Of a DNA stretch of 64,000 bases, positions 12,939-27,196 are shown piece after piece. Position numbers and translations under genes: made by a program. Below the pieces are notes generated by a model, which was not told the origin of the DNA, did no database searches, and worked only from the letters and a program-made list of their open reading frames with translations. Source of the stretch: a virus. Its lineage: Duplodnaviria; Caudoviricetes. Where the stretch lies: positions 22,051 to 86,050 of IMG/VR virus record IMGVR_UViG_3300037312_001875. One strand, written 5' to 3'. The stretch's first letter is position 1; every line of letters begins with the position of its first letter.

Positions 12939-12954
12939 AATAAAACATCTCCTT

Positions 12955-13022: not shown

Positions 13023-13225
13023 TACGCCCTTTCGGGCGCATATTTTAGTTTTGGTCTGCCATCTGTATAGCTCATGCTTTCTACACGTCCTCCAATGGTT
13101 TCTAAATAAGTTACCAATTTATCTAAGAAATGAAGTAGAGTTTCTTGATTTTCGATTTTACCTTCGTGGGCCATTTCGCAATAAAGGTTATCTGCCTGTG
13201 TTGTTAATTCATCTAATAAATTCAT
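13022..13225 (-). CDS. Hypothetical phage protein
   Basis: 67 aa with AGGAGG RBS. Confidence 0.65.
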   Translation of the reverse strand: MNLLDELTTQADNLYCEMAHEGKIENQETLLHFLDKLVTYLETIGGRVESMSYTDGRPKLKYAPERA

Positions 13226-13280
13226 AATTACATCCTCCTATAATTTCATAATTACAAAACTAGAAAATTAATAAATTATG

Positions 13281-13481
13281 TCATCCGAATTTCTTCTGTA
13301 CCAAATAACGGCCATCTCCAAAATCCTTTTCTATTTCACAAGGGAGTACAATAATTTGTTTTCCTTTGAACTTATATTGTTCAGGATTATATCCAATGGC
13401 TGGGCGAACATCCATAAATGCATTTCGTTCTACTGGGGTGAATAATAATACTCCATTGTAATTTTTATCTGTGATTTTCAT
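13281..13481 (-). CDS. Hypothetical phage protein
   Basis: GGAGG RBS before ATG 13481 (MKITDKN). Confidence 0.65.
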   Translation of the reverse strand: MKITDKNYNGVLLFTPVERNAFMDVRPAIGYNPEQYKFKGKQIIVLPCEIEKDFGDGRYLVQKKFG

Positions 13482-13602
13482 AATAAGCAACCTCCATATC
13501 CATTATTGTTATCAATGACCGGGGGTCCGTGGAATAGGGAGTGCGTGCCATGATTTCGCACGCATCCCCATCACATACCGACAACAACACAAGTTCACTC
13601 AT
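13465..13602 (-). CDS. Small hypothetical protein (45 aa, absent from ORF track)
   Basis: MSELVLLSVCDGDACEIMARTPY...; AAGGGGAG RBS; overlaps both neighbours. Confidence 0.5.
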   Translation of the reverse strand: MSELVLLSVCDGDACEIMARTPYSTDPRSLITIMDMEVAYYENHR

Positions 13603-13768
13603 GTGATCTAGGCTCTCCCCTTAAATATCCTTTTGCTAGGGCAATGAGTAAATCAATTTCTTCTAATTTAATGCGACCACGCTTATAGTTGATTATGATT
13701 TTATCGAGTTCTGAGTTTAATTTTTCTCGAGCAATCTCCTGTTTAGTTTTAACAACTGTTTCGTTCAT
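13595..13768 (-). CDS. Small hypothetical protein (57 aa, absent from ORF track)
   Basis: MNETVVKTKQEIAREKLNSELDK...; AAGGAGG RBS; ATGA overlap with the upstream stop. Confidence 0.6.
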   Translation of the reverse strand: MNETVVKTKQEIAREKLNSELDKIIINYKRGRIKLEEIDLLIALAKGYLRGEPRSHE

Positions 13769-13971
13769 GCGTAAACCCTCCTTCTATTTTTGACTGGAAT
13801 CAATGATGCACGAATGGATTCTCGTACAGCTGATTCTTTTACAACACGGGGACCATCATAGTAATTACCGATAAATTGGCCATTCACATAACGGTAATGA
13901 CGGAATCCAGAATTCTTTCCGCTTTTCATTCCTTGAATGTAGCGATCGACGATATTATCTCTAATACTCAT
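13765..13971 (-). CDS. Hypothetical phage protein
   Basis: 68 aa, AAGGGAG RBS, preceded by a leader cassette variant. Confidence 0.6.
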   Translation of the reverse strand: MSIRDNIVDRYIQGMKSGKNSGFRHYRYVNGQFIGNYYDGPRVVKESAVRESIRASLIPVKNRRRVYA

Positions 13972-13993
13972 TTAAAGCACTCCCTTTGTAATT

Positions 13994-14042
13994 TTGTAAT
14001 TATGAAAATAGAAAAAGAGGTGATTATGCAATCTCCTCTTTG
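13994..14042 (-). repeat. Early-gene leader cassette, variant copy
   Basis: Different hairpin (AAAGAGGAGATT/AATCACCTCTTT) but the same TTTTCTATTTTCATAATTACAA tail. Confidence 0.7.
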
Positions 14043-15187
14043 TTTTCATGAAGTTTCTTTAATTGTTCTAAACGTTGCTGGCGTTCTTTCCAGAAAGTTT
14101 CATTACTTGCTTTGATTTCATCCATTTGTTGTTTCTCAAATTTACCTAATCGGGCATTGAAAGGTGGGTTCGTGGTCATAATGTCAAACCCAAGTTCTCG
14201 TGCTTGTGCAGCTACAATTTGTACCTTGAGGTCATATGGAAGCGAATCCCATGATTGAAACATATATTCGTCGTATTCAAAAATTTCACGCTTTCGAAGA
14301 TCATATGGACTCAGGAAAACTTCTATCCATTCGCTTCCATCATCGAAAATGTCTACAGGTGCTTTGTGTTCTCCAAGTAAAGAATTGCCCCAGTAAATAC
14401 GTGTATTGGTTTTAAACTCGAAGTATTTATTGATGGTTAAGGTTTCGGGATCTGCATGCAATCCAATAATAGGTCCTGGAACATACAACAATGAAGGCAT
14501 ATATAGAAAGGCTTGTATGCTTGCAACTTTGACCATTGTCAGACTCAGGTCAGCTCCCACTAAATTAAGTGAACGAGAGGGCAGAACCATTGCACCTGCC
14601 CCAATACAAGGTTCATATTGACTGGAAGTTCTGTCATCATTGTCTGCAAACACCATCATGTTTATGGCTTTGGTGATGTCTATAGGAGTTGGAAAGTAAT
14701 CTAAATGACCACTTTGGCCATGTTCCCCAATGAAATGGGAAAAGTAATCTGCCGGCTCCTTTATAAGAAGACGGATATCAAACGTTTCATATAGAATCTG
14801 CCAAAGACGGTCAGGTATTTTCGGTGCTTTGAACCAAGCAATACCTAAACCATATCCAATCCATTCAATGAATTCCCAAAGTCGGTGTCCTTGGGCATAA
14901 ACCCATTTCATGCAATTCTCTAACATTTTCTCCCCGATACCTCTTCGACTACGGTCCGTAGTTACAACTGTCTCTGGCATTTGATAAGGATCATCCATAT
15001 GTCTTCGGGCATTGATCAGCAGCCATTCATACCATCGTCCTTCAAATTCTGTATCGGCTTTTAAAGCAATTCCACGCATCCAGCCAAATCGTTTTGAGTC
15101 TTCAACGGATTGAGCTGGATCGATCCAAAGAGGATGTTTCTCTAACTCTGATAAACGATACTGAATTCTCTCAGGTAATTGATTCAT
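14024..15187 (-). CDS. Orphan N6-adenine DNA methyltransferase (N-6 methylase family)
   Basis: YFPTP, SAM-binding YEPCIGAGAM and catalytic motif TTNPPF. Confidence 0.75.
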   Translation of the reverse strand: MNQLPERIQYRLSELEKHPLWIDPAQSVEDSKRFGWMRGIALKADTEFEGRWYEWLLINARRHMDDPYQMPETVVTTDRSRRGIGEKMLENCMKWVYAQGHRLWEFIEWIGYGLGIAWFKAPKIPDRLWQILYETFDIRLLIKEPADYFSHFIGEHGQSGHLDYFPTPIDITKAINMMVFADNDDRTSSQYEPCIGAGAMVLPSRSLNLVGADLSLTMVKVASIQAFLYMPSLLYVPGPIIGLHADPETLTINKYFEFKTNTRIYWGNSLLGEHKAPVDIFDDGSEWIEVFLSPYDLRKREIFEYDEYMFQSWDSLPYDLKVQIVAAQARELGFDIMTTNPPFNARLGKFEKQQMDEIKASNETFWKERQQRLEQLKKLHENKEEIA

Positions 15188-15345
15188 TAGATTACCTCCC
15201 GGTCAATTTTATTTTCTAATTCAAATAACTTGATTGTGTACCACTCAACATCTTCGGGTTTCATCGTTCTTGCTGATTTAAGAATGGTTTCAATAAAAGC
15301 GATCATCCTTTTGATTGCTGTGTTTCTTTGATGTATATAATCCAT
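15187..15345 (-). CDS. Small hypothetical protein (52 aa, absent from ORF track)
   Basis: MDYIHQRNTAIKRMIAFIETILK...; AAAGGAG RBS; stop overlaps the methylase ATG. Confidence 0.6.
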   Translation of the reverse strand: MDYIHQRNTAIKRMIAFIETILKSARTMKPEDVEWYTIKLFELENKIDREVI

Positions 15346-15361
15346 TTCTAATTAACTCCTT

Positions 15362-15424
15362 TCATAAATATGAAATTAGAAAAATAACAAAAAATAAAAA
15401 GGCATAGTTTTATAACTATGCCTT
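15362..15424 (-). repeat. Early-gene leader cassette, variant copy
   Basis: Hairpin AAGGCATAGTT/AACTATGCCTT, then TTTTCTAATTTCATATTTATGA, then RBS. Confidence 0.65.
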
Positions 15425-15544
15425 AACTGCTGGTTGCTGAATTCCTTGAGATTCATGTTTCATAATAGTCTTACAGATTTGAATATACCGTTCTGCATTT
15501 TTCTTTCCCACCAATTTAATTAGTTCAGCTTTTCCATTTGTCAT
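15416..15544 (-). CDS. Small hypothetical protein (42 aa, absent from ORF track)
   Basis: MTNGKAELIKLVGKKNAERYIQICK...; AAAGGAG RBS after a leader cassette. Confidence 0.55.
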   Translation of the reverse strand: MTNGKAELIKLVGKKNAERYIQICKTIMKHESQGIQQPAVKA

Positions 15545-15560
15545 GTTGAACACGCTCCTT

Positions 15561-15633
15561 TTGTAATTATGAAAATAGTAAAAGAGACAATTATGTTAAC
15601 TTGTCTCTTTTATCTCCACTGTTCTTATAACAC
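15561..15633 (-). repeat. Early-gene leader cassette, copy 2
   Basis: GTGTTATAAGAA..AAAAGAGACAA-loop-TTGTCTCTTTT-ACTATTTTCATAATTACAA. Confidence 0.8.
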
Positions 15634-15709
15634 GTTTTTTTGATTTTTTGTAAAATTTTCAGACAACTGAAATCGTTTCCATTAGAATAAAAAAAAGGAG
15701 GTATCGGCT

Positions 15710-15811
15710 ATGAAACATTTAGAACTATCTGATCAAGAACCTCAAGAGGAAGAAAAAAGGGAGGAAGAGGATACTTTTGAATATGACTATAATAAGCGAA
15801 TATGGTTTTAA
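15710..15811 (+). CDS. Very acidic 33-aa peptide (absent from ORF track)
   Basis: AAAGGAGG RBS; MKHLELSDQEPQEEEKREEEDTFEYDYNKRIWF; followed by a terminator. Confidence 0.55.
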   Translation: MKHLELSDQEPQEEEKREEEDTFEYDYNKRIWF

Positions 15812-15814
15812 AAT

Positions 15815-15847
15815 AAAAAAAGGTATCCTGCGCAGGATACCTTTTTT
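15815..15847. terminator. Bidirectional terminator
   Basis: AAAAAAAGGTATCCTG-cg-CAGGATACCTTTTTT. Confidence 0.85.
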
Positions 15848-16082
15848 AACTTTCTTTAAACCCTATATCATCGATGGTGTTCAATAACTTTTTTCGGTCA
15901 TTTGGTCGCAAAGTATCAAGAACTTCCACTTCCTTGGCTGCCATGACTTTAATGGCTTCCATCATTTTTTGATGTGTTTTTGGTCCAATTCCAGGGATGC
16001 CATGAATAGCAGTTTCAACTAAATCCCAAGTGTCATTGCATCCTTTAATATACGAACGAAGTAACTTTTCTGACATCCCCAT
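15846..16082 (-). CDS. Hypothetical protein (HhH-like GIPGIGPKT motif)
   Basis: 78 aa downstream of the response regulator; IPGIGPKT resembles a helix-hairpin-helix. Confidence 0.55.
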   Translation of the reverse strand: MGMSEKLLRSYIKGCNDTWDLVETAIHGIPGIGPKTHQKMMEAIKVMAAKEVEVLDTLRPNDRKKLLNTIDDIGFKES

Positions 16083-16094
16083 TTGTAGATCCCC

Positions 16095-16763
16095 TTACTG
16101 TTTAATCGTTACCCAATTTTTTTTGATGGCCAAAAGGACTGCATTAGTGCGATCCTCTACTTTTATCTTTTGGAAAATACTGGTCATATGGTTTTTTACG
16201 GTTTTTTCGCTAATATGCAAATACTCTGCCATAGATCCGTTACTGTGCCCATCGGCTAACAACTGTAACACTTCGCATTCGCGTACAGTTAAAATTTCGA
16301 GTGGGGGATGTGCCTCTAAAGTATCAGCTTGGTTTTTTCCCACTAACGCATCGATGACAAACCCTGTTACCTCTGGGTGTAGATATTGATGTCCTTTAAC
16401 CACTTGTGTAATTGCTCCAATTAATTCAGGAGGAGTTGTTTCTTTTATGATATAACCAGATGCTCCGTTTTTTAATGAGTCGATCACATAAGATTTTTCT
16501 GCATGAACGGAAAGCATCACTACTTTTGTATTTGGATGAAGGGTAACGATTTCCTTGGTTGCTTCAATTCCGTCCATCTCAGGCATATTTACATCCATTA
16601 ACACGATGTCTGGCTTTAATGTATCGACAAGATTTAATGCTTCAATTCCATTTGTTGCAGAACCAACCACTTCAAAAGACGGTTCGTTGTCCAGTATACT
16701 TTTGACTCCTTCTCTAAAAAAAAGATGGTCGTCAACAAGGATGATCCTTGTAATTTTAATCAT
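16095..16763 (-). CDS. degU: DegU-like NarL/LuxR-family response regulator (orphan)
   Basis: DDHLFFREGVKSIL, phospho-acceptor DIVLMDVNMP, YLHPEVT, PLEILTVRECEVLQLLADGHSN, ISEKTVKNH closely follow B. subtilis DegU; no adjacent kinase. Confidence 0.8.
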   Translation of the reverse strand: MIKITRIILVDDHLFFREGVKSILDNEPSFEVVGSATNGIEALNLVDTLKPDIVLMDVNMPEMDGIEATKEIVTLHPNTKVVMLSVHAEKSYVIDSLKNGASGYIIKETTPPELIGAITQVVKGHQYLHPEVTGFVIDALVGKNQADTLEAHPPLEILTVRECEVLQLLADGHSNGSMAEYLHISEKTVKNHMTSIFQKIKVEDRTNAVLLAIKKNWVTIKQ

Positions 16764-16894
16764 GTTTTTTCACCCCGAAATGTAATGTCTCCTCACACTT
16801 ATTCTGTCTATGTTACTTTAGTCCTAAACAAATTGTAGCACCTAGCTCGTTCTTTTACAAGTCGTTTGAAAAAATGATACAATTATGTTTATGT

Positions 16895-16916
16895 TGAATC
16901 ATGTTCCAAATCTTCA
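16895..16916 (+). other. Ter-like RTP binding site (left)
   Basis: TGAATC-ATGTTCCAAATCTTCA; core has 2 mismatches to the B. subtilis TerI core ATGTACCAAATGTTCA as recalled. Confidence 0.6.
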
Positions 16917-17044
16917 TAGATTCATAGGTTGTTCACGCACTATAACAGAGGAAACCCCTTAACGGCTCACGCTTATTGTTAGTAGGGGAAGTCTTGGATA
17001 ACCATATACATAATGGGTAGGAACCAACATAATTTCAAACATAT

Positions 17045-17066
17045 TGAAAATTTGGAACAATGTTCA
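17045..17066 (-). other. Ter-like RTP binding site (right, inverted, next to the rtp RBS)
   Basis: Minus strand TGAACA-TTGTTCCAAATTTTCA; 18/22 identical to the left site. Confidence 0.6.
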
Positions 17067-17079
17067 TAAGGAGGAAATC

Positions 17080-17439
17080 GTGGGAAAGGATAGCGGTTTT
17101 TTAATGAAACAACGAGCCTTCTTAAAACTGTGCTTAATTGGTGAGACAGAGAAGGGGCGCCTTTACGGATTGAGCTTCTGGAAAAAAATACGTGAAGATT
17201 ATGGGGATGCTTGCGAATATCGTCCTACGCATACGGAGATATATAAAGCGCTGCATGATCTAATTGACGATGGAGTTCTCAAACGGGAAAAAAGAGTCAA
17301 AGAGGGAATGAAGTATCAGGAAGTAGTGTACTATGTTTTTCAAGATTACAGCAAAGCCCAGCTTTACAAAAAACAATTGAAGGTGGAGCTGGAACGGAAT
17401 ATTAAAATTCTAAAGAAAGCGTTGAAGGATAATTATTGA
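17080..17439 (+). CDS. rtp: Replication terminator protein
   Basis: GFLMKQRAFLKL, RLYGL, PTHTEIYKALHDLIDDGVLK, QEVVYY, AQLYKKQLKVELER match B. subtilis RTP; AAGGAGG RBS before GTG 17080. Confidence 0.93.
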   Translation: MGKDSGFLMKQRAFLKLCLIGETEKGRLYGLSFWKKIREDYGDACEYRPTHTEIYKALHDLIDDGVLKREKRVKEGMKYQEVVYYVFQDYSKAQLYKKQLKVELERNIKILKKALKDNY

Positions 17440-17472
17440 AAAAAACAGAGGGCAAACGCCCCCTGTTTTTTT
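17439..17472. terminator. Bidirectional terminator
   Basis: AAAAAAACAGAGGG..CCCCCTGTTTTTTT. Confidence 0.8.
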
Positions 17473-17481
17473 ATTATACTG

Positions 17482-17847
17482 TCATCCATCATCCTTCCTT
17501 TTCTCCGTATCTTTTAAATAATCAGTTAATACAGCTACAGCGGACTTTAAGAAACATAATAAAAAATCTTTCATCAGTGATTTGTATTTAGCTGTAAAAA
17601 CCTTTTTATGATTTCCAGCAAAATAAAGTTTGACTTCGCCACCTGAACGGTCAAACCTCATTTCAGCAAAACGAATGGTTTCCTTATCTTTTTCCCCCGA
17701 ATAATCGATAGCAATGTATCCATCATTTTTAAATTTCTCTTTATACTTTCCGTACCATTCTTGAGCGATTGTTACCGCATCTTCATCAGTGTCCCGTAAT
17801 ATGGTCTTCTCCAATGAACCTTTATAGATTAATGAAATGACATACAA
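17482..17847 (-). CDS. Hypothetical phage protein
   Basis: 121 aa, GGGGGAGG RBS before TTG. Confidence 0.6.
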   Translation of the reverse strand: MYVISLIYKGSLEKTILRDTDEDAVTIAQEWYGKYKEKFKNDGYIAIDYSGEKDKETIRFAEMRFDRSGGEVKLYFAGNHKKVFTAKYKSLMKDFLLCFLKSAVAVLTDYLKDTEKRKDDG

Positions 17848-17903
17848 CTATTGACGCCTCCCCCGTACATAAATAAAAAATCAGTTCCACCTCCTTTTTA
17901 GTT

Positions 17904-17971
17904 TTATAATTATGAAATTAGAAAAGGAGACAATATTACAATTGTCTCCTTTACCATTTTCCTTATAACAC
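17904..17971 (-). repeat. Early-gene leader cassette, copy 3
   Basis: GTGTTATAAGGA..AAAGGAGACAAT-tgtaat-ATTGTCTCCTTT-TCTAATTTCATAATTATAA. Confidence 0.8.
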
Positions 17972-18131
17972 TTTCTTAAAATGCGAGCGTTCGATGAAAA
18001 AATATGAATATTTTTATTAACCCAAGAATACAAACAAGTATTTTGTTCATAAGATTTAGAAAAGGGGGTTATTTATCGCAAGAAAATTGTGAATTCAAAA
18101 AATGGAAAATCTATTTTAAGATAGAAAAAAA

Positions 18132-18274
18132 TCATTACTGACTCATTACTCAGTTATTATTCATTCCCGTAAAAACGTTGTCTATCTCGTTACTAAGGTC
18201 ATTACTGAGCTTTCAGTAATTACTCGAAAGGCCAGTAATGAAAAAAAGGTGACCTTCTAGCTCATCAGTAATGA
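18132..18274. repeat. Array of TCATTACTGA-like 10-mers (direct, then inverted)
   Basis: Direct copies at 18132, 18143, 18187 (variant), 18199; inverted copies at 18213, 18232, 18265. Confidence 0.8.
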
Positions 18275-18350
18275 AGTTAAGAATTACTTTCTTGAAAAAG
18301 GAATCAGTTAGAAGGGTCTAAATAAAAATTGTAAAAAGAGGAAGGTTATT

Positions 18351-18995
18351 ATGTATAGAATTACATCCACGTTTCAAGCAAAAGAATCCATCAGAGATTT
18401 TCATCCTCATTCTGGAATTGACTTTGCGCTACCTTTGAATGAGCCGATACGTTCAATCAGAGATGGTGTTGTTGAAAAAATTACTCATTATAAAGGAAAC
18501 ATTGGTAATGGGGTTTTAGTTCGGTGGGATGACGGGAAGGTTTCTATTTACGGTCACATGAATAAGGTTAACGAAAGCCTTCATGTTGGTGATCAGATTC
18601 ATGCCGGAGAACTGCTCGGATTCGCGGGCTCCAGTGGCCATAGTTCGGGCGTACATCTCCATTTTGGCCTCAAAGAAGGAGGAAGATTTATTGATCCTTC
18701 CCCCTACATTAACGATATACAGAGCATGAACATGAAACAATATGTGCAGCAAGCACCTGTAGTTACCCAATTGAAAATGAACTTTATGGAATATATGCAA
18801 ATGCATATGAACGCAGTTAATGATTCATTATCAAACCTAAATCTTCACTTCATCAATTTCTTATCTCAAGCGAAGCTTCATTTAATTTCTTCTTTACTTG
18901 ACAATTCTTTGTTCTTCCAAGTATTCAAGCAAATTTATCAATTCACGGCGACTCATTCCAGTTCGATCTATGACATAATCACTCACATCATCTAA
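18351..18995 (+). CDS. M23-family peptidoglycan endopeptidase
   Basis: HSGIDF (HxxxD), YGHM and HLH zinc motifs. Confidence 0.85.
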   Translation: MYRITSTFQAKESIRDFHPHSGIDFALPLNEPIRSIRDGVVEKITHYKGNIGNGVLVRWDDGKVSIYGHMNKVNESLHVGDQIHAGELLGFAGSSGHSSGVHLHFGLKEGGRFIDPSPYINDIQSMNMKQYVQQAPVVTQLKMNFMEYMQMHMNAVNDSLSNLNLHFINFLSQAKLHLISSLLDNSLFFQVFKQIYQFTATHSSSIYDIITHII

Positions 18996-19052
18996 ACGGT
19001 CTTCCCAAATGGATGTAGTATCAGTTGTGAACCAGCTGCCAAATTGTATCAT
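18894..19052 (-). CDS. Small protein (52 aa) overlapping the 3' end of the M23 gene in antisense
   Basis: GAAGGAG RBS; MIQFGSWFTTDTTSIWEDRLDDVSDYVIDRTGMSRRELINLLEYLEEQRIVK. Confidence 0.5.
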   Translation of the reverse strand: MIQFGSWFTTDTTSIWEDRLDDVSDYVIDRTGMSRRELINLLEYLEEQRIVK

Positions 19053-19073
19053 GTTATCTCAGCTCCTTCTTAA

Positions 19074-19145
19074 TTAATTGTCGTCGTTGTTGCCAATGAT
19101 TTCTTCGATTTTGCTATCGCGATCTTTATTAAGAGTGAACATCAT
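19074..19145 (-). CDS. 23-aa leader peptide
   Basis: AGGAGG RBS; MMFTLNKDRDSKIEEIIGNNDDN; stop lies just before the RBS of the next ORF. Confidence 0.4.
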   Translation of the reverse strand: MMFTLNKDRDSKIEEIIGNNDDN

Positions 19146-19212
19146 TTTTAATGACCTCCTGCTGTGTTGGTTGGTATGAGTATAGTATGGAACTTTTTAA
19201 GGAGTGTTATAC

Positions 19213-19650
19213 ATGTCTAATTACAAAAAAATCACGATTTTTTTAAATGAAAATATTTACAAAGAAATTAACGACATCATTGAGTATCGAAATAAACGTA
19301 TTCAATACGATAAAGAAGATAAAAAAGTATCAAGCATTGAAGAGTTTGTCACAGGCAGTGCGATCCAGGTGCTCAAATGGTTAAAACATGAAGAATCTTT
19401 TGCTGGCATGGATGATTTAGGAAAACCTTACCGACTTGAAAATTCCTTTAAGAAAATCATGACAAAAAAAGGAATGAGAGGTAAGGATCTATCGGAAATA
19501 ACGAATATCCATCACGGTAATATAAGTTCTATCCTGAATAATAAAAACCAACCTTCACTGGATTATTTTCTCCGTATCTGGATAGCTTTGGGTTGCCCTC
19601 CACTTAATGAGTGCCTTCACCGTATTAAAGATGAAGAGGAACAAGAATAA
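19213..19650 (+). CDS. XRE-family helix-turn-helix regulator (possible N-terminal RHH)
   Basis: C-terminal MRGKDLSEITNIHHGNISSILNNKNQPSLDYFLRIWIALG. Confidence 0.8.
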   Translation: MSNYKKITIFLNENIYKEINDIIEYRNKRIQYDKEDKKVSSIEEFVTGSAIQVLKWLKHEESFAGMDDLGKPYRLENSFKKIMTKKGMRGKDLSEITNIHHGNISSILNNKNQPSLDYFLRIWIALGCPPLNECLHRIKDEEEQE

Positions 19651-19740
19651 TTGTGATTTAAAAAAAAAATTTTGAAAGTACAAATTCATTTCTGGGCACA
19701 GTTGCATATAATACAGTAATTGAAAAGGAGGTTTTAGCAT

Positions 19741-19881
19741 ATGATTACAGCTTTAATTGGTATTCAAACCACATGCGTCATCGTAGCGAGCAGCTACGTT
19801 ATTAAACATTTTAGACCGAAAATGGCTAAGTTAAAAGTGCATTCTAAATCCAAAGGATTCAAACATTACAAGTCATTCTAA
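19741..19881 (+). CDS. Small membrane peptide (46 aa)
   Basis: AAAGGAGG RBS; hydrophobic N-terminus and Lys-rich tail. Confidence 0.55.
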   Translation: MITALIGIQTTCVIVASSYVIKHFRPKMAKLKVHSKSKGFKHYKSF

Positions 19882-19907
19882 AAAATCACAAATTGGAGGT
19901 TGCCATT

Positions 19908-20111
19908 ATGACGTTTGTAATCATGACAGCCATAAAGTTGGGAGCGGTGCTAGGAACTGGAATTGCGCTTTCAGCTGCATTTTCTCAATTCCACAGTTAT
20001 GAATGGAAACCAAAGTCAAAGAATAAGAAAGAAAAGGGTGAATCTGATGGTTCTTCGAAAGCAACAAAAGTTGGTGAGGCTTTGCGTCAAAAATCCGGAT
20101 CCGCTAACTAA
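19908..20111 (+). CDS. Small membrane protein (67 aa)
   Basis: GGAGG RBS before ATG 19908; single TM segment, then a basic tail. Confidence 0.6.
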   Translation: MTFVIMTAIKLGAVLGTGIALSAAFSQFHSYEWKPKSKNKKEKGESDGSSKATKVGEALRQKSGSAN

Positions 20112-20613
20112 TTATTGCTATTCCTCTCCCATCTCTATAGATGACGGAACGGTTGGTATTAATTCAATAAATTTTCATATCCCAACATTACTAGAGGAGG
20201 TGAAAAATCTTCCAAGAAAGAAAATAAAGGAATACAAACGAATCATTCAGACATTTCTAACCACGGCAACCAGCTTCATGGCATTACCATTAAAATCAAT
20301 GGCAAACACATTGCCAAGCACAACGGCGTCCACACTACCAACTCATGCCGAAGGGATTCCTCCAGAATTACTGGATCTTCTCTTAAAACTTTTGGTGATT
20401 TCAGTGGGGTCAGCGGTAATATTTGCGGCCATTCTTTTGGTAGCAGCGGGAGTAAAGAGGATGTTGGGAAATCGGAAAGAATCGAGCGAATGGACTGTCG
20501 ATATTCTGAAAGGACTTGTGCAAGTAATGGTAGCCGTACCAGTCGTATTCATGATTTATTACGTGGTAAGTCTTCTCTTCAAGGGGTCAGGATGGTTCAT
20601 CAGTCCTTTCTGA
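20047..20613 (+). CDS. Membrane protein with TrbC/VirB2 pilin-like two-TM C-terminus
   Basis: AAAGGGTG RBS before ATG 20047; signal-like segment ending KSMA, then two hydrophobic helices separated by a short charged loop. Confidence 0.5.
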   Translation: MVLRKQQKLVRLCVKNPDPLTNYCYSSPISIDDGTVGINSINFHIPTLLEEVKNLPRKKIKEYKRIIQTFLTTATSFMALPLKSMANTLPSTTASTLPTHAEGIPPELLDLLLKLLVISVGSAVIFAAILLVAAGVKRMLGNRKESSEWTVDILKGLVQVMVAVPVVFMIYYVVSLLFKGSGWFISPF

Positions 20614-21749
20614 AGAAAATCGCTATACCGTTTACAGCTATAAGTACTGTCAGTCTAACGTCTTTCTTTAAAACAGCTCAGGCTGCAACCTTATCTGATG
20701 TCATTTTTCAAAAAAACGGCGTACTCACTCATGATTTTAGTGGTCAACACAATGGCGGAGGTTTTTCCATTGTAAACACCACAAAAACTGTTTACAACAA
20801 CATCGAATATATCACAGGAAAGATAATCGCATTTTTTGATTGGATTAATAATATACCTGGCTCCTTACCAAAGTACACCGCAGACCTATTCACCAGTGTT
20901 TATCACTTCTTAGCAAAGATCGCGCTACAAACTCCTCTAATCATCTTTGACAATCCATTTATTAAAAACACTTCTCTAACCTTTTCCCTTCTTTCTATCT
21001 CACTAGTCACTTTCTTATTGATATACGAGTCATTCATGAAGATGTTGGGCAAAAAGCATACAGACTTAAAGAAATTCGCAAAACGTTATGCCATTGCCGT
21101 AACAGCTTCGGGATTTGCTCCTTTTGCTTTCAAAGAAGGATTTTCTCTTCTAAATGAACTATCAAATGCCATAATGAAAATCGGCGGCGGAATAGATGGC
21201 GGCAATATAAATGGTTTAATTTCAGGGGAAACCGTAGGATTCTTTGACACCTTGATTATCATCTTGTTTGATTTAACAACGATTGCTCTTTTAATTCCAG
21301 TATGCCTTCAAGCGGGCAGAAGATGGTGGGATTTATTTTGTTTGGCGGCTGTCACTCCACTGGCTCTTTCTTGCTACGTGTTCGATAGGCACCAGCATTA
21401 TTACAAACTTTGGTGGAACAGAGTAAAGTCTTTATCAATGGTCCAGCTGGTATATTCAGTGTTTATCTTAATGATGGGGATCTTCATCTTTGCAACTCAA
21501 TCCATGCAAGGCGGAATTTATACGCTTTTCATCAAACTACTTATAGTCGCAGGAGGGCTTTACAGATTAGCAAATCCACCACGATTTGTTACAAAAATGA
21601 CAGGAGACAAAAAGGACTTATTGGATTCATTCGAGGAAGGAAGAGACGCGTTTAAGTCTACGAAAAAGATACTTCTTTTTAAAGATAAGAAATTCAATCC
21701 AGTAAAAAAGTTCGCTGGAAATTTAGTGAAATGGAAGAATAAGCCATGA
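20592..21749 (+). CDS. Multi-pass membrane protein (VirB6-like topology)
   Basis: AAGGGG RBS before ATG 20592; signal-like AQAA, then six or more hydrophobic segments. Confidence 0.55.
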   Translation: MVHQSFLKKIAIPFTAISTVSLTSFFKTAQAATLSDVIFQKNGVLTHDFSGQHNGGGFSIVNTTKTVYNNIEYITGKIIAFFDWINNIPGSLPKYTADLFTSVYHFLAKIALQTPLIIFDNPFIKNTSLTFSLLSISLVTFLLIYESFMKMLGKKHTDLKKFAKRYAIAVTASGFAPFAFKEGFSLLNELSNAIMKIGGGIDGGNINGLISGETVGFFDTLIIILFDLTTIALLIPVCLQAGRRWWDLFCLAAVTPLALSCYVFDRHQHYYKLWWNRVKSLSMVQLVYSVFILMMGIFIFATQSMQGGIYTLFIKLLIVAGGLYRLANPPRFVTKMTGDKKDLLDSFEEGRDAFKSTKKILLFKDKKFNPVKKFAGNLVKWKNKP

Positions 21750-21883
21750 TATTACTGAAATTAGGTTTGTTAGCTGTACTTGGTAAAAAGTTCTATGGTG
21801 CTCTTATATACGCTCAATTGATACAGCACACAGTCAATTCGATTAAGAAAAAGATTGATAAAAAATTGGAGGTTTCAGCATGA
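21746..21883 (+). CDS. Small peptide (45 aa), hydrophobic N-terminus and basic C-terminus
   Basis: ATGA overlap with the upstream stop; MILLKLGLLAVLGKKFYGALIYAQ... Confidence 0.5.
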   Translation: MILLKLGLLAVLGKKFYGALIYAQLIQHTVNSIKKKIDKKLEVSA

Positions 21884-21999
21884 TGATAGGAACAGCTACG
21901 TTAATTTTAATTCTAAACACCACTATGATTTTGGCTAATACAACAGTTTTATTGGTTAGTGGCGCTAAGATTTTGAAAGAAGTTAGAAAAGAGGATTAA
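21880..21999 (+). CDS. Small membrane peptide (39 aa)
   Basis: GGAGG RBS; MMIGTATLILILNTTMILANTTVLLVSGAKILKEVRKED. Confidence 0.55.
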   Translation: MMIGTATLILILNTTMILANTTVLLVSGAKILKEVRKED

Positions 22000-22002
22000 C
22001 CT

Positions 22003-24273
22003 ATGTCTCTCACACGGATCCGGAATAAAACTCCTATTGCCAATGAGAGAACCAACGTCTATGAAATCGAAGAGTTTAATCACCACTTGCTACATGATAT
22101 CCTTCAATCCAGATTCATTGCGGAAGGTGTTTACGGTTTTGAAAAGTATTCCATTGATAATTACAAAGAAGAATATATGTTTACCCCTTCCTTTGATAAA
22201 AGAGAAGGAGAATGTATCCAGAAGGAATGGAACTTTCAAAATGAGGATATAAAGGAAATCAGTGTTTATGAGTTAGTCTTAACCAAACCGTTATTTATGC
22301 CATTGGACACAAGCGCATTTCTAGACCTGTTTAACCTAATGGATGTCGTACCGAAAGCTTCAGTCTTTACACAGGTATTGTTTTGCAAACGGCAAAAAGA
22401 CTGGAAGGAAACAGCTATATCCCAATACGAAAGCTTTTTGAAAGGTAATGATCGCCCTTTAGAAGGGAAGTTCAGTATAAAGTGGCAGGAAAAAGTTTTA
22501 GGAATGCTGACAAAACTTAATAATTTCACAATTCAACGGGACCGAATTGAGGAAATGGAGCAAAAAATTCTTCAAACCAATTATCGGTTTGAATGCAGAT
22601 TCCTGGTATTTGAACAGAAATACGAAAAACAATTTATTTCTTTTTTAAAAAATGAACTTGTGAAATTACAACTTTTTAATGAATTTAAAATTACGAAGGC
22701 ACGCAATAAAAGGAATCTTCTTAAGCATATTGAAAGCCGGCAATTTCAATTAGATTTAACGAATCAGATTCTCTCAGAAGGTGAAATGTTTAGTGTATTA
22801 TGCGATAAGACATCAGCTGCTATGGTTGAAACAGTCGAACTAGAAATGCCAGTTAAAAGAACCGGAATATCCATTAGTATCGAAGAAGGCGCGGTTATCC
22901 AACAGGCTTCAAGCTTCATGCCTTTGACTACCAATACGACAGTTGAAATTGATGAATCTAAAATAACAGCTATTAATAATGTCTTTAAACGTGTTGGTAT
23001 TGTAGATAAGGCCCTGGAGGTAACAGATATATATCAGGGGGCGAGTCTTTTAAAAGTGCAGATGGAAGTTCCACCTGAGATCACTTATACATCCATCACA
23101 CGGAAGTTAAAGGATATACAAGGAGCAATGGGAAATAAGAATATTTCGATTGAAATTGGAGGTCCTGACACGATAGATGTATTTATTCCTTTAGAAGAAA
23201 GGCGACCAGTTTACTTCAACGACATATTAGAGTCAGAGGAGTTCAAACAATTTAAAGAAGAAAACCTATTGCCGTTTATATTGGGTGAAAATGTGAATGG
23301 CGGATATATATTCGCCTGCTTAACCAAATTAAGACATCTTTTGGTGTCAGGAACAACAGGAAGCGGAAAAAGTGTATTTCTCAACTTAATTATCCTTTGC
23401 TTTATTCTTAGCCTTCCTCCAGAACAACTCATGATTTATCTTATAGATCCGAAGATGGTGGAATTTACACAGTTTAAAGGCTTTCCACAAGTCAAGAGTG
23501 TGATTACGGATATGCGAAAAGCCAATGGTCTTTTGAATTCACTAGTAGAAGAAATGGAAAAACGATATGAGACCTTTTCTAAAACAGGCTGCAAAGACAT
23601 TCAAACTTATAATCTGAAGAATGAACAAAAAATACCTTATATTTTATTCGTAATCGACGAATTGTCTGATTTAATGATGGTAAATAAATCAGTTGAGGAC
23701 GGTATTGTCCGTCTATGTCAAATGGCAAGGGGAGCAGGCATTCATTTAATCCTTGCTACTCAACGTCCATCGGTTGATGTTGTGACAGGTGTAATTAAGG
23801 CAAATATGCCATCACGCATAGCTTTTGCTGTAACCTCAGTTACAGATTCCAGAACAATCCTTGATAAGAGTGGAGCAGAAAAGTTATTAGGGCGTGGAGA
23901 CGGCATTGCCAAGATTGAGGGAAGTAAGAATGAATTTGAACGATTCCAGTCACCTGTATTAACGCTGAATAAGGAAGAGGAGGAAGAAATCATTGATAAG
24001 CTTATTCATCTGTTTGATGGGGTTGTTGTTGAAGACGAAATTCAAGAAGCTAAAGAGGAAGAACCAATTGATCAATTAAAACGCTGTATCGCAAACACTG
24101 GAGAACTTCGAGTAAACGAATTAGCAAGATTAATGGAGCTAGGGAATAACAAAGTGCACGCACTAATGCAAAAATTATTAGAAGAGGAATGGCTGAAGAA
24201 GCCAGGGAGGAGTTACGAAATTAATGTAGATGAAGAAGAATTAAATAAATGGAAGGATGAAAATTATGAGTAA
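22003..24273 (+). CDS. FtsK/SpoIIIE-family DNA translocase ATPase
   Basis: Walker A GTTGSGKS, IDPKMVEF, Walker B VIDELSDL, GIHLILATQRPS, EKLLGRGD; C-terminal winged-helix; no obvious N-terminal TM anchor. Confidence 0.92.
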   Translation: MSLTRIRNKTPIANERTNVYEIEEFNHHLLHDILQSRFIAEGVYGFEKYSIDNYKEEYMFTPSFDKREGECIQKEWNFQNEDIKEISVYELVLTKPLFMPLDTSAFLDLFNLMDVVPKASVFTQVLFCKRQKDWKETAISQYESFLKGNDRPLEGKFSIKWQEKVLGMLTKLNNFTIQRDRIEEMEQKILQTNYRFECRFLVFEQKYEKQFISFLKNELVKLQLFNEFKITKARNKRNLLKHIESRQFQLDLTNQILSEGEMFSVLCDKTSAAMVETVELEMPVKRTGISISIEEGAVIQQASSFMPLTTNTTVEIDESKITAINNVFKRVGIVDKALEVTDIYQGASLLKVQMEVPPEITYTSITRKLKDIQGAMGNKNISIEIGGPDTIDVFIPLEERRPVYFNDILESEEFKQFKEENLLPFILGENVNGGYIFACLTKLRHLLVSGTTGSGKSVFLNLIILCFILSLPPEQLMIYLIDPKMVEFTQFKGFPQVKSVITDMRKANGLLNSLVEEMEKRYETFSKTGCKDIQTYNLKNEQKIPYILFVIDELSDLMMVNKSVEDGIVRLCQMARGAGIHLILATQRPSVDVVTGVIKANMPSRIAFAVTSVTDSRTILDKSGAEKLLGRGDGIAKIEGSKNEFERFQSPVLTLNKEEEEEIIDKLIHLFDGVVVEDEIQEAKEEEPIDQLKRCIANTGELRVNELARLMELGNNKVHALMQKLLEEEWLKKPGRSYEINVDEEELNKWKDENYE

Positions 24274-24279
24274 TGATGC

Positions 24280-24314
24280 AAAGCCCTAGATTAATACTAG
24301 GGCTTTATTTTTTT
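24280..24314 (+). terminator. Rho-independent terminator
   Basis: AAAGCCCTAG / CTAGGGCTTT plus T run. Confidence 0.8.
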
Positions 24315-24379
24315 AAGAAAAGTTCTGACTTTTCGTGCATAATACATATAGGGCTATTTTACTATCAAGAGGTGAGTGG

Positions 24380-25003
24380 ATGAGTCAAGGTGCGAACGCT
24401 CAAACGGTTTTTGATTATCTAAAAGAAAATTACCCTGATGATTGCATCCAGTGGGCAAAAACGGTTGATTGGAAATTAGATAACGAAGTTTCTCTAAAAG
24501 ATATCCAAATGGCTCGGCGACCAGGTGGAGCTAGAGAAATGGATAAGGTGCGGGGTATTGCTCAAACAGTAAAAGACGGAAAGCCAATGGATCCTGTTGT
24601 TTTGGTAAGACTTCCAGACAGAACGATTAAGATTGCAGATGGTTATCATCGTACATTGGGATTCCAACATGCGGGTAAGAAAACAATAAAGGCGTGGATC
24701 GCTACCGTGCCTGATATGAAAGGAGCCTGGGATAAAGAGATGCATGAGAAAAAACTAAACATCGGAAAGAAAGCCTATCAAGAATTTTTGGAGTTTGTTG
24801 GATTTGAGAAAGAAGCTATGGCGCAGATCCCGGAAGCATTGGGCGGCAATATTTTTAATCGCCTTGCTCAAATGGATGACGTAGCAAGCCTTGCTATTAT
24901 CTCACGTAAAAAGCAGCAACAAGCACAACAGGCGGACAATCATGAAAAGGAAGCATCTGAATTAATGGAAAGATTAGAGAAAACCACATTAACATCTTTG
25001 TAA
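24380..25003 (+). CDS. ParB/Srx N-terminal-domain protein
   Basis: MDPVVLV..IADGYHRTLG ParB-N signature; AAGAGGTG RBS before ATG 24380; C-terminal KKA/FEKEA/HEKEA motifs. Confidence 0.7.
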   Translation: MSQGANAQTVFDYLKENYPDDCIQWAKTVDWKLDNEVSLKDIQMARRPGGAREMDKVRGIAQTVKDGKPMDPVVLVRLPDRTIKIADGYHRTLGFQHAGKKTIKAWIATVPDMKGAWDKEMHEKKLNIGKKAYQEFLEFVGFEKEAMAQIPEALGGNIFNRLAQMDDVASLAIISRKKQQQAQQADNHEKEASELMERLEKTTLTSL

Positions 25004-25032
25004 AGTGAGAGTGAATAACTCTCGCTTTTTTT
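25003..25032 (+). terminator. Rho-independent terminator
   Basis: AAGTGAGAGT / ACTCTCGCTT plus T run. Confidence 0.75.
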
Positions 25033-25128
25033 ATAGATAAATAGGACGTTTGGTTCATATGAAATTATGAAATTTCATGATTAAATAAATAGCATAAATA
25101 CTAATTACATCTAGAGGGGATATCAATA

Positions 25129-26307
25129 ATGGCTAAAAAGTATGCAGCAGAGTATCCAGCATTTAATGAAACATACAATATAGATGAAGTAGGAGATATG
25201 CTTAAGAACCAAAAGCATAATCTTGAAATGAACACCTATGCAACCATATCTGGGATCCGAGGAAAGCAATTCGGTAAAGAAATTTTTTCAACTGTGATTA
25301 AATTCAAAGATTTACGTGACTTCATGGAGACATTCAAGGATGTTCAACGGAATCTCATTGTTTCGAAAATGAATAGTGCCAAAAACTATATCCTGTCTGG
25401 TTTAGGAAAGAAAAATCCAATGAGGTTTTTCCCTGCCATAACAGCAACTGCAAGAGGAAACATTTTCTATAGCGAGGAAGATAACCGTTTGGCGATTGAT
25501 ACAAGAACGAGCAAATTAAGTTTGAATGATGGCCAACATCGCTATTTTGCCACAATCGAGGCAATTCGTACCTTACAAGGCAGAATCAATAACTCTAAAG
25601 ACGAAGTGGAGAAGGAAAATTTAAAAGAGCTTTTAAAAGAGCTCAATAACATGGCAATGCCTGTAGTCATTTTTAATAATTTAACCATTGAAGAGGAACG
25701 CCAACTGTTTTCGGACACTAATAACTTGGCACAAAGACCATCCAGAAGTGCTACCATTCGTTTGAACCAAACAGATTTATTTAGCCGCATGTCTAGGGAT
25801 TTAGTAAATTTAAACAAGTATTTTCAACATTATGGCGTTGAAATGGATAAAGCAAGTATCTATGGAAAGGACAATAAGAATACCATTCTTTTAACAACCA
25901 TTTATGCGAGCATTAAAACCTTATTAGGAAGAAAGTTAGACGAAGAAACATATGAGGTTTCTAAAAAGTATTTGAACGATACATTTAATAACATGTATCA
26001 AATGTTGCCTCCAGATCTCAATAATCGTGGGATTTATATTACAGACCAATCTTATGCCATCAAAGGAATTGTGAAGTTCATTGCGGATTATCGAGCAAAA
26101 GATTTTAATGACAAAGTAATTTTTGAAACCATTGGAAAAGTGAATTGGGTAGCAGATATCAATTACTGGAAGCAATATGGAGCGATGACCTCTAAACAAG
26201 GCAAGCTGGTATTTGGCGGAAGCGGCGATCACGGAAGATATGCGGTTTTCCATGCATTAGAGGATAATCTTCCTGATCAACCGAAACAATTGGAATTGAT
26301 TCAATAA
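25129..26307 (+). CDS. DGQHR-domain (DndB-like) protein
   Basis: FFPAITA..LSLNDGQHRYFA..EERQLFSDTNNLAQRPS signature. Confidence 0.85.
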   Translation: MAKKYAAEYPAFNETYNIDEVGDMLKNQKHNLEMNTYATISGIRGKQFGKEIFSTVIKFKDLRDFMETFKDVQRNLIVSKMNSAKNYILSGLGKKNPMRFFPAITATARGNIFYSEEDNRLAIDTRTSKLSLNDGQHRYFATIEAIRTLQGRINNSKDEVEKENLKELLKELNNMAMPVVIFNNLTIEEERQLFSDTNNLAQRPSRSATIRLNQTDLFSRMSRDLVNLNKYFQHYGVEMDKASIYGKDNKNTILLTTIYASIKTLLGRKLDEETYEVSKKYLNDTFNNMYQMLPPDLNNRGIYITDQSYAIKGIVKFIADYRAKDFNDKVIFETIGKVNWVADINYWKQYGAMTSKQGKLVFGGSGDHGRYAVFHALEDNLPDQPKQLELIQ

Positions 26308-26329
26308 ATAGGTACTGGGGGAGCGTAAA

Positions 26330-27196
26330 TTGGGGACTGTTATAACATTCGGACTACAGAAAGGTGGAGTTAGTAAGTCGACTTCAACTGGCATTTTTGC
26401 TCATTTGATGAGTAAAGATGGATATAAAGTTTTAGCAATAGACATGGACTCCCAAGGAAATCTTACAGAACTACTTACTAATGTAGAATCAAATGAATTC
26501 ATAGGTAAATCGGTGCTTGAGGCAATTGTAAGTAGATCAGTAAAGGATTATATCGTTAAGGTAAATGATCATCTTGATGTTTTGCCGGCTAACAATTTTC
26601 TCGCTTTACTACCAAAGTGGTTATACACCTATACTTTGTTTGATAATGAAAAAGTATACTATACAGGTGGAACAACGGAACAATTATATTTAACAATTGA
26701 ACCAATCATTGACCAATATGACTTTATTTTGATTGATACACCTCCATCTTTATCCGAGCAGACGACCAATTCCTTAGTGGCTTCTGATTATGTTATCGTT
26801 CCTTTTGAATCTTCATATTTTTGTCTGCGTGCCATTCCAAACTTTATTGAGTCTGTTGAGCATTCACGAAAGACAAGTAAACGAGATGTACAGATTCTAG
26901 GTGTACTAAGAACATTAAACGATAAGAGGCGAAGTGATTCTAAATTGTTCAATGAGACCATAGCAGACACATATCCTGAACTTGTTTTTAAAACGATTAT
27001 TACAAGGAAAGCATCTACAGGGAGATTACCGTTAAGTGGATTCGATGATAATCAAGAATTAGGAGATGCACTTGAACAGTTTAGAAACGTGTATGTGGAA
27101 ATTAAGGAACGATTAGGATTGGGTCGAGAGGTTCGAAAGGGGAAGATGAAGATTGGCAAAGAAGTTAGACGACTTAAAGGAAAGATTAGCAAATAA
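26330..27196 (+). CDS. parA: ParA/Soj-family partition ATPase
   Basis: QKGGVSKST, AIDMDSQGNLT, ILIDTPPSL, ALVASDYVIVP-like motifs. Confidence 0.92.
   Translation: MGTVITFGLQKGGVSKSTSTGIFAHLMSKDGYKVLAIDMDSQGNLTELLTNVESNEFIGKSVLEAIVSRSVKDYIVKVNDHLDVLPANNFLALLPKWLYTYTLFDNEKVYYTGGTTEQLYLTIEPIIDQYDFILIDTPPSLSEQTTNSLVASDYVIVPFESSYFCLRAIPNFIESVEHSRKTSKRDVQILGVLRTLNDKRRSDSKLFNETIADTYPELVFKTIITRKASTGRLPLSGFDDNQELGDALEQFRNVYVEIKERLGLGREVRKGKMKIGKEVRRLKGKISK

Follow-up and report, generated by a model that had tools for sequence, protein, structure and literature searches.

What use does a tailed phage have for a set of genes that resemble parts of a conjugation apparatus and stand in front of a gene for a soluble FtsK-like ATPase? 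The question arises from a 64,000-nucleotide stretch of DNA, here called the window and numbered from its own first base, which covers bases 38676-102675 of the linear IMG/VR virus record IMGVR_UViG_3300037312_001875 (116,043 bp; estimated completeness 29%). A preliminary description of this DNA had listed co-oriented genes for an M23 peptidase, an XRE-type regulator, a protein with a signal sequence and two transmembrane (TM) helices, a multi-pass membrane protein and an FtsK ATPase, ending at one terminator, and all of these are present on the plus strand where that description had placed them. Together with parts beyond that list, namely a DUF7394 mini-protein, two tiny hydrophobic open reading frames (ORFs) and an iteron array, they make up one co-oriented set spanning window positions 18132-24306, all of whose genes lie on the plus strand and which we refer to as the cassette.

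Judged from sequence and predicted structure, the cassette is a hybrid of type IV secretion system (T4SS) and FtsK components of the TraB type, and homology and fold show its parts to be those of a putative membrane complex of T4SS ancestry energised by a pump for double-stranded DNA (dsDNA). We put at roughly 0.45 the probability that it works as a self-contained, T4SS-derived membrane device that moves the dsDNA of its own element across a septum. The earlier label of a "minimal conjugation-like module" is fair for the parts, but the module is neither special to this element nor its only candidate for DNA transfer. An FtsK/SpoIIIE homologue of Bastille-like phages has been noted for more than ten years as "possibly related to sporulation" (PMC3601020, PMC4197329, PMC4528723). 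A search of the open-access literature returned no paper on the cassette, its VirB4-like domain, its arrays, DUF8128, or the combination of Bacillus phage, TrbL and FtsK. The FtsK homologue and annotations of the individual genes were known, but no description of its partner genes or of its domain composition came to light.

The FtsK-like ATPase and the repeat array

The last gene of the cassette (22003-24273, plus strand) encodes a 756-aa ATPase without a TM anchor that, from Pfam, PDB and fold comparisons, is composed of a region resembling the VirB4 N-terminal domain (NTD; residues ~10-275), a linker, an FtsK alpha/beta motor (~318-650) and a winged helix-turn-helix (wHTH) of MarR/IclR type (~690-750). 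The motor matches Pfam PF01580 with an E-value of 8.7e-43, and in a PDB profile search residues 335-650 matched FtsK (2iuu) at E 8e-91, whereas the "DNA translocase coupling protein" entry 6o1w was far weaker (E 8e-36), as were the EccC ATPases of type VII secretion. No variation is seen in the Walker A and B motifs (GSGKS and DE), an ATQRP motif is conserved, and the FtsK_alpha domain was detected in 21 of 34 relatives of the ATPase, with an E-value of 0.01 for the window protein itself. The hydropathy profile has no hydrophobic segment before the Walker A region, and the N-terminal septum-targeting TM domain is thus lacking. Pfam and hydropathy together bear out the earlier account of a complete FtsK ATPase with a C-terminal wHTH and no anchor.

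The N-terminal region is predicted to be something other than an FtsK domain. Residues 10-275 fold in the model as a soluble alpha/beta domain with a predicted local distance difference test (pLDDT) score of ~90; for the N-terminal 340 residues that were modelled, the pLDDT is 82.5 and the predicted template-modelling score 0.73. Against 48,161 representative chains, the fold search VIA, which is independent of Foldseek, placed residues 37-397 of TrwK/VirB4 first (Z 12.4, root-mean-square deviation 3.3 Å, 214 residues), followed by a chain of the ESX-3 complex (Z 9.3), with all others at Z 6.2 or below. The nine best non-redundant Foldseek matches are likewise all VirB4. The ESM Atlas links the domain by predicted structure to DUF8128 (PF26449), which is found in front of coupling-protein-like ATPases. 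These ATPases, from Patescibacteria and Bacillota, possess a soluble N-domain of similar predicted fold (template-modelling score 0.59-0.62 by query), but it is fused to a P-loop ATPase of T4SS or HerA type, TraG/TrwB-like and not FtsK-like as here, and none of the 34 ATPase relatives matches the Pfam entry.

At the other end of the chain, the C-terminus matches MarR in 18, HTH_IclR in 16 and TrmB in 11 of the 34 relatives. Ftsk_gamma (PF09397) gave no match, and a PDB sequence search with the C-terminal 107 residues found neither FtsK gamma nor any other wHTH structure. The cassette contains no VirB4-type ATPase domain (AAA_10 or CagE_TrbE_VirB), the motor being of FtsK type and only the N-domain resembling that of VirB4. 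With a VirB4-like fold, an FtsK motor and a wHTH in one polypeptide, the "anchor-less FtsK" is therefore, by sequence and model, predicted to be chimeric, joining a docking domain of T4SS type to a dsDNA pump and a wHTH. In the T4SS of R388, VirB3 is wrapped around the VirB4 NTD (residues 15-400), and both proteins are in contact with the base of VirB6 (PMC9259494). A complex prediction that combined the FtsK N-domain with the VirB6-like and VirB2-like chains of the cassette returned a score of 0.00, which carries no weight either way.

The cassette opens with an iteron array (18132-18275, assigned to neither strand) of at least six copies of TCATTACTGA-like units, three direct and then three inverted, a candidate loading or operator site. 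Comparable arrays were sought in 20 loci drawn from Bastillevirinae phages, metagenome contigs bearing SPbeta genes, genome contigs and plasmids. In 19 of them an array occupies the intergenic region just before the first cassette gene, the Bacillus cereus plasmid pBFR_2 being unclear, and it consists of 4-10 copies of a 7-10-bp unit arranged as a direct block followed by inverted copies. The unit is TTACTGA in the window and in loci L018, L019 and L014; TTACC(C/G) or a close variant in L013, L015, L016, L017, Bcp1, Deep Blue, Eldridge and the Niallia plasmid; TTTCC(C/G) in Grass, SIOphi, Bp8p-T, Shbh1, Goe8 and L011; and AATTCCC in TsarBomba.

The recognition helix of the ATPase wHTH varies along with the unit. 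The helix N-K-V/I-H-A-L goes with TTACTGA, N-I/V-V/L-S-D/E/Q-L with TTACC in six standard loci, and T-A/T/S-x-M/V with TTTCC. An Asn at the second position of the recognition helix is present in all 12 loci with a TAC-containing unit and in none of the seven TTCC loci, which have Thr, Gly or Ala there. This split cuts across phylogeny, as Bastillevirinae fall on both sides of it though their motor domains are 61-68% identical.

A given unit class can stand behind TubRZ in one locus and behind Alp in the next, while the array of the window follows no partition genes; nor does the unit of the window form a second cluster anywhere in the 116-kb record. The array is therefore a feature of the cassette and not of the partition genes. 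The possibility that it is the centromere of a neighbouring partition system was rejected, the same class of unit being found beside unrelated TubRZ, Alp and ParM systems. Since Bastillevirinae have arrays yet lack the XRE gene, the best candidate reader is the ATPase's own wHTH, which may thus recognise the repeats of its own operon much as TraB recognises clt.

Membrane proteins and wall hydrolase

The multi-pass protein (385 aa, 5-6 TM helices; 20592-21749, plus strand, in an ORF that opens at 20490) has a signal-like N-terminus and is likely to be a divergent relative of VirB6/TrbL, a placement suggested by three independent lines of weak to moderate strength, none decisive alone. Among 37 relatives, five match Pfam TrbL_4 (best E 9e-10) and two match TrbL; a relative of 45% identity is named "TrbL family" by NCBI, and one phage record annotates TrbL. 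In a PDB profile search TrwI/VirB6 came second, at E 0.42. The AlphaFold model is of moderate quality (pLDDT 63.5), and when it was compared with 350,542 chains by Foldseek the top eight matches were all TrwI/VirB6 (E 0.047). VIA also placed TrwI first (Z 9.3 over 211 residues), ahead of the Legionella DotA protochannel (Z 8.0). At the level of phage families the protein belongs to phrog_3750 (E 1e-70), to which no function is assigned.

The case for a VirB2/TrbC relative is a weak one. The candidate, P0100 (179 aa as called; 20074-20613, plus strand, within ORF 19963-20613), was singled out by its topology and its relatives. It begins with a conserved cytoplasmic leader of ~45 aa, continues with a signal-like helix ending in A-x-A, and has two TM helices joined by a basic loop; this topology and the A-x-A site are kept in 31 relatives. 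Alignments with plasmid and phage counterparts reach E 5e-14 to 7e-19, and the orthologue on the Niallia plasmid (E 5e-14), which carries the PGAP name TrbC/VirB2 family, is the only relative to score above the Pfam TrbC (PF04956) threshold (31.0 bits; gathering score 27.9). A PDB profile search with the family produced chance-level matches only, and in Pfam, NCBIfam and PHROGs neither the VirB2-like nor the VirB6-like window protein directly matches TrbC or TrbL. Of the conjugation-like parts named in the preliminary description, the VirB6/TrbL component has therefore gained from all three lines, Foldseek among them, whereas TrbC was reached only through the one Niallia orthologue in Pfam.

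The genes for these proteins are closely packed. The start of the VirB2-like gene lies over the end of the DUF7394 gene (20074-20111), and the long ORF of the VirB6-like protein overlaps the VirB2-like gene by 124 nt (20490-20613), exactly as annotated in phage Bcp1. The start codons of both are uncertain, 20074 being that of the gene-caller and 20592 the probable one.

Several smaller hydrophobic products, up to four mini-membrane peptides in number, accompany the two proteins, all encoded on the plus strand. The DUF7394 mini-protein (72 aa; 19893-20111) has one N-terminal TM helix and a charged tail; it matches Pfam PF24126 at E 1.2e-5, just under the gathering score, its Bcp1 orthologue does so at E 3e-11, and 12 orthologues could be aligned. 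Upstream of it lies a 46-aa ORF of uncertain status (19741-19881), with a strong ribosome-binding site, one hydrophobic helix and a basic tail. Two tiny hydrophobic peptides are encoded between the VirB6-like gene and the ATPase gene: one of 45 aa (21746-21883) that is kept in L018, L019 and L014, and one of 39 aa (21880-21999) with a LILN-T-M motif and GGAGG 8 nt upstream, whose orthologue in Bastillevirinae is the ORF of 36-42 aa found in front of ftsK. An intrinsic terminator-like hairpin with a T-run (24280-24306, plus strand), 7 nt past the ftsK stop codon, closes the cassette, and a terminator is annotated at the matching place in phage Grass.

The first gene of the cassette encodes a LytM-type M23 metallopeptidase (214 aa; 18351-18995, plus strand). 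It matches PF01551 with 83.4 bits against a cut-off of 28.7 (E 1.3e-23) and phrog_7767 over its full length (E 7.7e-45), has intact HxxxD and HxH motifs, and carries a C-terminal extension of ~90 aa. Syntenic homologues occur in 129 phage records. Five of the 20 loci have a cassette without it (Bcp1, TsarBomba, Deep Blue, the Niallia plasmid and pBFR_2), and the hydropathy profile of the window protein shows neither a signal peptide nor a TM segment. The XRE/Cro-type helix-turn-helix (HTH) protein that follows (148 aa; 19204-19650, plus strand; Pfam HTH_26/HTH_3) is 44% identical to its homologue at the same position on the Niallia plasmid; cellular, plasmid and metagenome loci include its gene in the cassette (with the position kept in L011 and L013-L019), and Bastillevirinae lack it.

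Taken as a set, the cassette shares with T4SSs, including those of the Tcp/ICEBs1 type, candidate VirB6/TrbL-like and VirB2/TrbC-like proteins, a VirB4-NTD-like domain and an FtsK-related ATPase such as is found in TcpA-type coupling proteins, and its M23 enzyme would be the functional analogue of the hydrolases VirB1, CwlT or TcpG. It differs from them in having no VirB4 ATPase domain, no VirB8/TcpC-like protein, no relaxase and a hydrolase without a membrane anchor.

Distribution and candidate functions

The cassette recurs in more than 150 Bacillus phages, mostly lytic ones, and in large plasmids of Bacillaceae. By tblastn, 160 phage records have the full-length ATPase (~35% identity); a search with the multi-pass protein likewise gave 160 records, 158 of them from Bacillus phages; these carrier counts come from record searches and examined loci and are not an unbiased census. 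Where taxonomy was checked, the phage carriers are Herelleviridae of the subfamily Bastillevirinae, which are treated as strictly virulent and, as the Bastille-like group, are the only spounaviruses with the FtsK pham (PMC4528723). Wherever a host is named, the carriers infect Bacillaceae genera or originate in them.

The gene order is common to all 20 independent loci, a recurrence far beyond chance, and the cassette is thus a conserved module and not a local accident. In nine Bastillevirinae (Bcp1, Grass, Shbh1, Goe8, TsarBomba, Deep Blue, SIOphi, Bp8p-T and Eldridge) the order is a ParM-like gene, a small protein, M23 where present, DUF7394, a protein of ~180 aa, a membrane protein of ~350 aa, a peptide of ~38 aa, FtsK and, where annotated, a terminator. 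The same order with the XRE gene added is found on the Niallia plasmid and on pBFR_2, both typed as non-mobilizable; on genome contigs of Shouchella clausii, Bacillus sp. T33-2, B. infantis, Metabacillus arenae and Fictibacillus nanhaiensis; and on soil metagenome contigs of 135 kb, 137 kb and 1.02 Mb. SPbeta genes (yonJ/yonK) are present on two of these three metagenome contigs and on the T33-2 contig. Directly upstream, 17 of the 20 loci have a cytomotive partition pair, either ParM/ALP with its adaptor or TubR with TubZ. The window cassette has no such adjacent pair; its neighbours are a replication terminator protein (RTP) gene upstream and genes for a ParB_N-like protein, a DGQHR/DndB-like protein and ParA downstream.

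These observations suggest a device that acts late in segregation. In the reading that we favour, a hexameric FtsK-type pump would load on the element's own DNA at the array by means of its wHTH, and the VirB4-like domain would dock it onto the small membrane proteins and the VirB6-like protein. The complex would assemble at a septal membrane and pump a copy of the phage or plasmid dsDNA across, with the M23 enzyme opening the septal peptidoglycan. The receiving compartment would be a forespore or a just-divided sister, making this the last step of segregation after ParM, Alp, TubZ or ParA has acted. SpoIIIE pumps DNA through the sporulation septum. A minimal set of VirB2, VirB6 and an ATPase moves DNA without a relaxase in the Ced and Ted systems of archaea (PMC9905601). 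The comparison with Ced/Ted is one of architecture only, the cassette likewise combining VirB2-like and VirB6-like proteins with one ATPase and no relaxase; the Ced/Ted ATPase, however, is VirB4/HerA-like throughout, and Ced imports chromosomal DNA for repair.

We lean to a forespore or sister compartment because the named hosts of the carriers are Bacillaceae, because the cassette adjoins partition genes and because in phages of the B. cereus group it follows sigF/sigG-like genes. The delivery to forespore or daughter cell that the preliminary description had offered as one option accordingly fits the wider evidence of Bacillaceae hosts, partition genes and sigma factors better than conjugation does, and it is kept here as a conjecture. 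That the forespore specifically is the destination is possible but doubtful. The same tentative standing applies to the fuller proposal of an "injector", in which a T4SS-derived channel and an iteron-addressed FtsK dsDNA pump would send a copy of the genome, by active transport, through the sporulation septum to the forespore.

Several points weigh against the septal device. The septal localisation and the crossing of a membrane by DNA are inferred only; it is not obvious why a lytic phage would need such a device if entrapment in spores did not matter to it; and the association with endospore-formers could simply mirror how the carriers are related. No export signal is present in the M23 enzyme, whose gene, as noted, a quarter of the loci lack. 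The ties to VirB2 and VirB6 run through relatives and a moderate-confidence model with no direct Pfam match, and a Z of 9.3 lies within the range that helical proteins reach by chance. The covariation of helix and unit covers 19 loci and three to four unit classes without formal phylogenetic correction, and the array could instead be bound by the XRE protein or by a factor of the host, in which case it may be no more than an operator.

The same parts list would also serve a relaxase-independent, TraB-like conjugation of dsDNA between separate or chain-neighbour cells, by which the element would spread without virions. A peptidoglycan hydrolase and a pilin-like protein suit the crossing of a full cell wall, large plasmids carry the cassette, the Ced/Ted systems offer a precedent for relaxase-free transfer with a minimal T4SS set, and several features recall the TraB/clt system of Streptomyces: a single FtsK-type motor that ends in a wHTH, short repeats arrayed close to the gene as the likely cis site, a module free of relaxase, and accompanying small membrane proteins (Spd in Streptomyces). 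Streptomyces TraB, however, has an N-terminal TM anchor, whereas the cassette ATPase is soluble with a VirB4-NTD-like domain, its partners resemble VirB6 and VirB2 and not Spd, its hosts are Bacillaceae and its carriers are mostly lytic phages. Of the TraB likeness proposed in the preliminary description, the soluble FtsK motor and the wHTH stand, and the array joins them as a clt-like candidate, but the score against NCBIfam TraB (NF041214) is 63.1 bits with a cut-off of 800. Transfer between cells also sits poorly with the ~160 Bastillevirinae carriers, phages described as strictly virulent (PMC4528723) that kill the donor within one cycle and have no T4SS, and the idea of a second route besides virions, special to a phage-plasmid, is not supported. 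Nor does it appear to be the element's own conjugation system, as was also suggested, since the plasmids that carry it are typed non-mobilizable and the record already has a full, separate Tcp-type T4SS with a relaxase candidate. The cassette includes no surface adhesin or aggregation gene, and its constant adjacency to partition genes suggests segregation within the cell. We consider TraB-like transfer unlikely, and classical cell-to-cell conjugation a less likely use of the cassette.

A further reading dispenses with membrane crossing altogether and sees in the cassette a membrane-tethered, iteron-specific motor or partition accessory, which would clear, orient or decatenate replicon DNA at closing septa in the manner of SftA/FtsK, or resolve multimers; the membrane proteins would then be an anchor only, and the array could be an autoregulatory operator. 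That the cassette is always found beside ParM, Alp, TubZ or ParA genes, that the array falls within the operon's promoter region and that non-phage loci include an XRE-type regulator are all in keeping with this, as is a motor closest to genuine FtsK, which shares with FtsK, SpoIIIE and SftA the alpha/beta motor, Walker A/B and ATQRP motifs described above. The likeness stops short of the N-terminal TM domain and Ftsk_gamma, which the cassette ATPase lacks, its wHTH being of MarR/IclR/TrmB type, and of the KOPS and SRS sites, which are dispersed and polar whereas those of the cassette are apparently clustered in one array. Moreover, four to six dedicated membrane proteins resembling T4SS channel parts, plus a wall hydrolase, exceed what an anchor needs, the cassette has no conserved recombinase, and a VirB4-NTD-like domain is otherwise known from secretion machines; a role confined to one side of the membrane is thus improbable. 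Least probable of all is a device for protein secretion and host takeover, or for superinfection exclusion by interception of incoming DNA. FtsK/SpoIIIE-type ATPases do power type VII secretion, EccC and EssC are among the matches, the second-best fold match of the N-domain is the ESX-3 chain, and the PHROGs category of the ATPase is "moron, auxiliary metabolic gene and host takeover". But the protein has a single ATPase domain and a DNA-binding wHTH in 756 aa where EccC and EssC chains run to 1147-1392 aa, its best matches are dsDNA translocases, a cognate repeat array lies on the element's own DNA, and there is no WXG100-like substrate gene in the cassette. PADLOC reported no defence system, only generic FtsK-domain matches to SspH and mad8 and a DndB match for the neighbouring gene.

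The phage FtsK homologue is thereby placed as the motor component in a conserved operon that has up to nine genes, membrane parts resembling those of T4SSs, a VirB4-type docking domain and a predicted DNA address, and a vague annotation gives way to a specific mechanism that is testable in B. subtilis with existing phages. If DNA does cross the septum, the cassette would be a new hybrid of the two great bacterial families of DNA translocation; it could explain how phages and low-copy plasmids enter spores, and would bear on the biocontrol of spore-formers with such phages. Should the injector proposal be correct, entrapment of lytic phages in spores would be an encoded strategy and not an accident.

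Three of the phages, Bcp1 (L002), TsarBomba (L021) and Deep Blue (L022), have the cassette right after sigF/sigG-like sigma-factor genes and ParM, and a small minus-strand ORF between the array and DUF7394. Phage sigma factors of this kind are reported to alter host dormancy (bioRxiv 10.1101/2021.11.12.468384). In the genome-contig loci L011, L013, L015, L016 and L017, a small HTH gene and a gene for a RecD2-like helicase (~730-745 aa) lie downstream of ftsK, with PhoH-PIN, HU and sigma-factor genes upstream; the window has no RecD2-like helicase downstream of ftsK.

The record, its separate T4SS and neighbouring genes

The structural genes of the record are of myovirus type (baseplate wedge, tail lysin and major head protein), the major head protein showing only distant likeness to that of Bacillus phage G, and the presence of ParA, RTP and Alp7A makes a phage-plasmid plausible. 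The closest protein relatives are from Neobacillus drentensis and Bacillus spp. Near-identical DNA occurs in at least 11 soil and rhizosphere metagenome runs, with no RNA runs listed among them. A megablast search with the cassette and 24 kb of structural genes against phage and plasmid collections gave no match, and the informative searches are those at the protein level only; an exact look-up of the window gene product P0082 likewise found no identical product on record. The evidence for an intact 116-kb record is one assembly together with tiling by short contigs from other samples, and over the stretch from the T4SS to the fibre genes these contigs are short and of low depth, none spanning the whole.

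As the preliminary description had stated, neither VirB4 nor a relaxase turned up among the window ORFs that were scanned, but the record has both outside the window. A complete monoderm T4SS of the Tcp/ICEBs1 type occupies record bases 7997-20515 (L007, L010; minus strand), 18-31 kb before the window start. Its genes encode an SLT+NlpC/P60 hydrolase, a 598-aa protein without a family, a VirB4-like AAA_10 protein (E 6e-61), TcpE, TcpC, a Replic_Relax protein that lies ~40 kb from the cassette, and a 968-aa membrane P-loop protein. By its gene content this system is the more obvious conjugative route of the record, and a tailed-phage record with a full conjugation system is of note if the assembly is sound. 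Neither a relaxase nor an oriT occurs in the cassette at any of the 20 loci. The idea that the cassette duplicates the Tcp-type system was rejected, the gene sets being unrelated: comparison of the VirB6-like profile with the 598-aa protein, and of the ATPase with the 968-aa P-loop protein, found nothing in common beyond Walker A. In Bacillus sp. T33-2 the cassette is present and no AAA_10 match in the genome exceeds the cut-off; the cassette is therefore independent of such a system.

The record also encodes an Alp7A-type actin-like partition ATPase (record bases 21174-22316, L010:6174-7316; Pfam Alp7A_like_C E 8e-31), outside the window, which with the window ParA brings the partition ATPase classes on the record to two. 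Upstream of the Alp7A gene are TGTATACA-type palindromes; these repeats differ from those of the cassette array, a further point against the array as a partition centromere. Just upstream of the cassette, at 17044-17439, lies the RTP homologue (Pfam RTP E 1.4e-41), at the site where relatives have the ParM/Alp or TubZ pair. Directly 3' of the cassette, 24335-27196 encodes a 222-aa protein with weak ParB_N/parB_part similarity, the 392-aa DGQHR/DndB-like protein (TIGR03187 E 6e-24) and the ParA ATPase; the DndB-like protein may be the centromere-binding partner of ParA and not a DNA-modification protein. Further from the cassette, a DegU-like response regulator with a receiver domain and a GerE/LuxR HTH is encoded on the minus strand at 16095-16763. 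At 3322-8899, three successive genes for proteins of 346, 655 and 805 aa share an Mtd_N-type N-terminal domain, one of them with BNR-repeat similarity as well, and probably encode alternative receptor-binding proteins.

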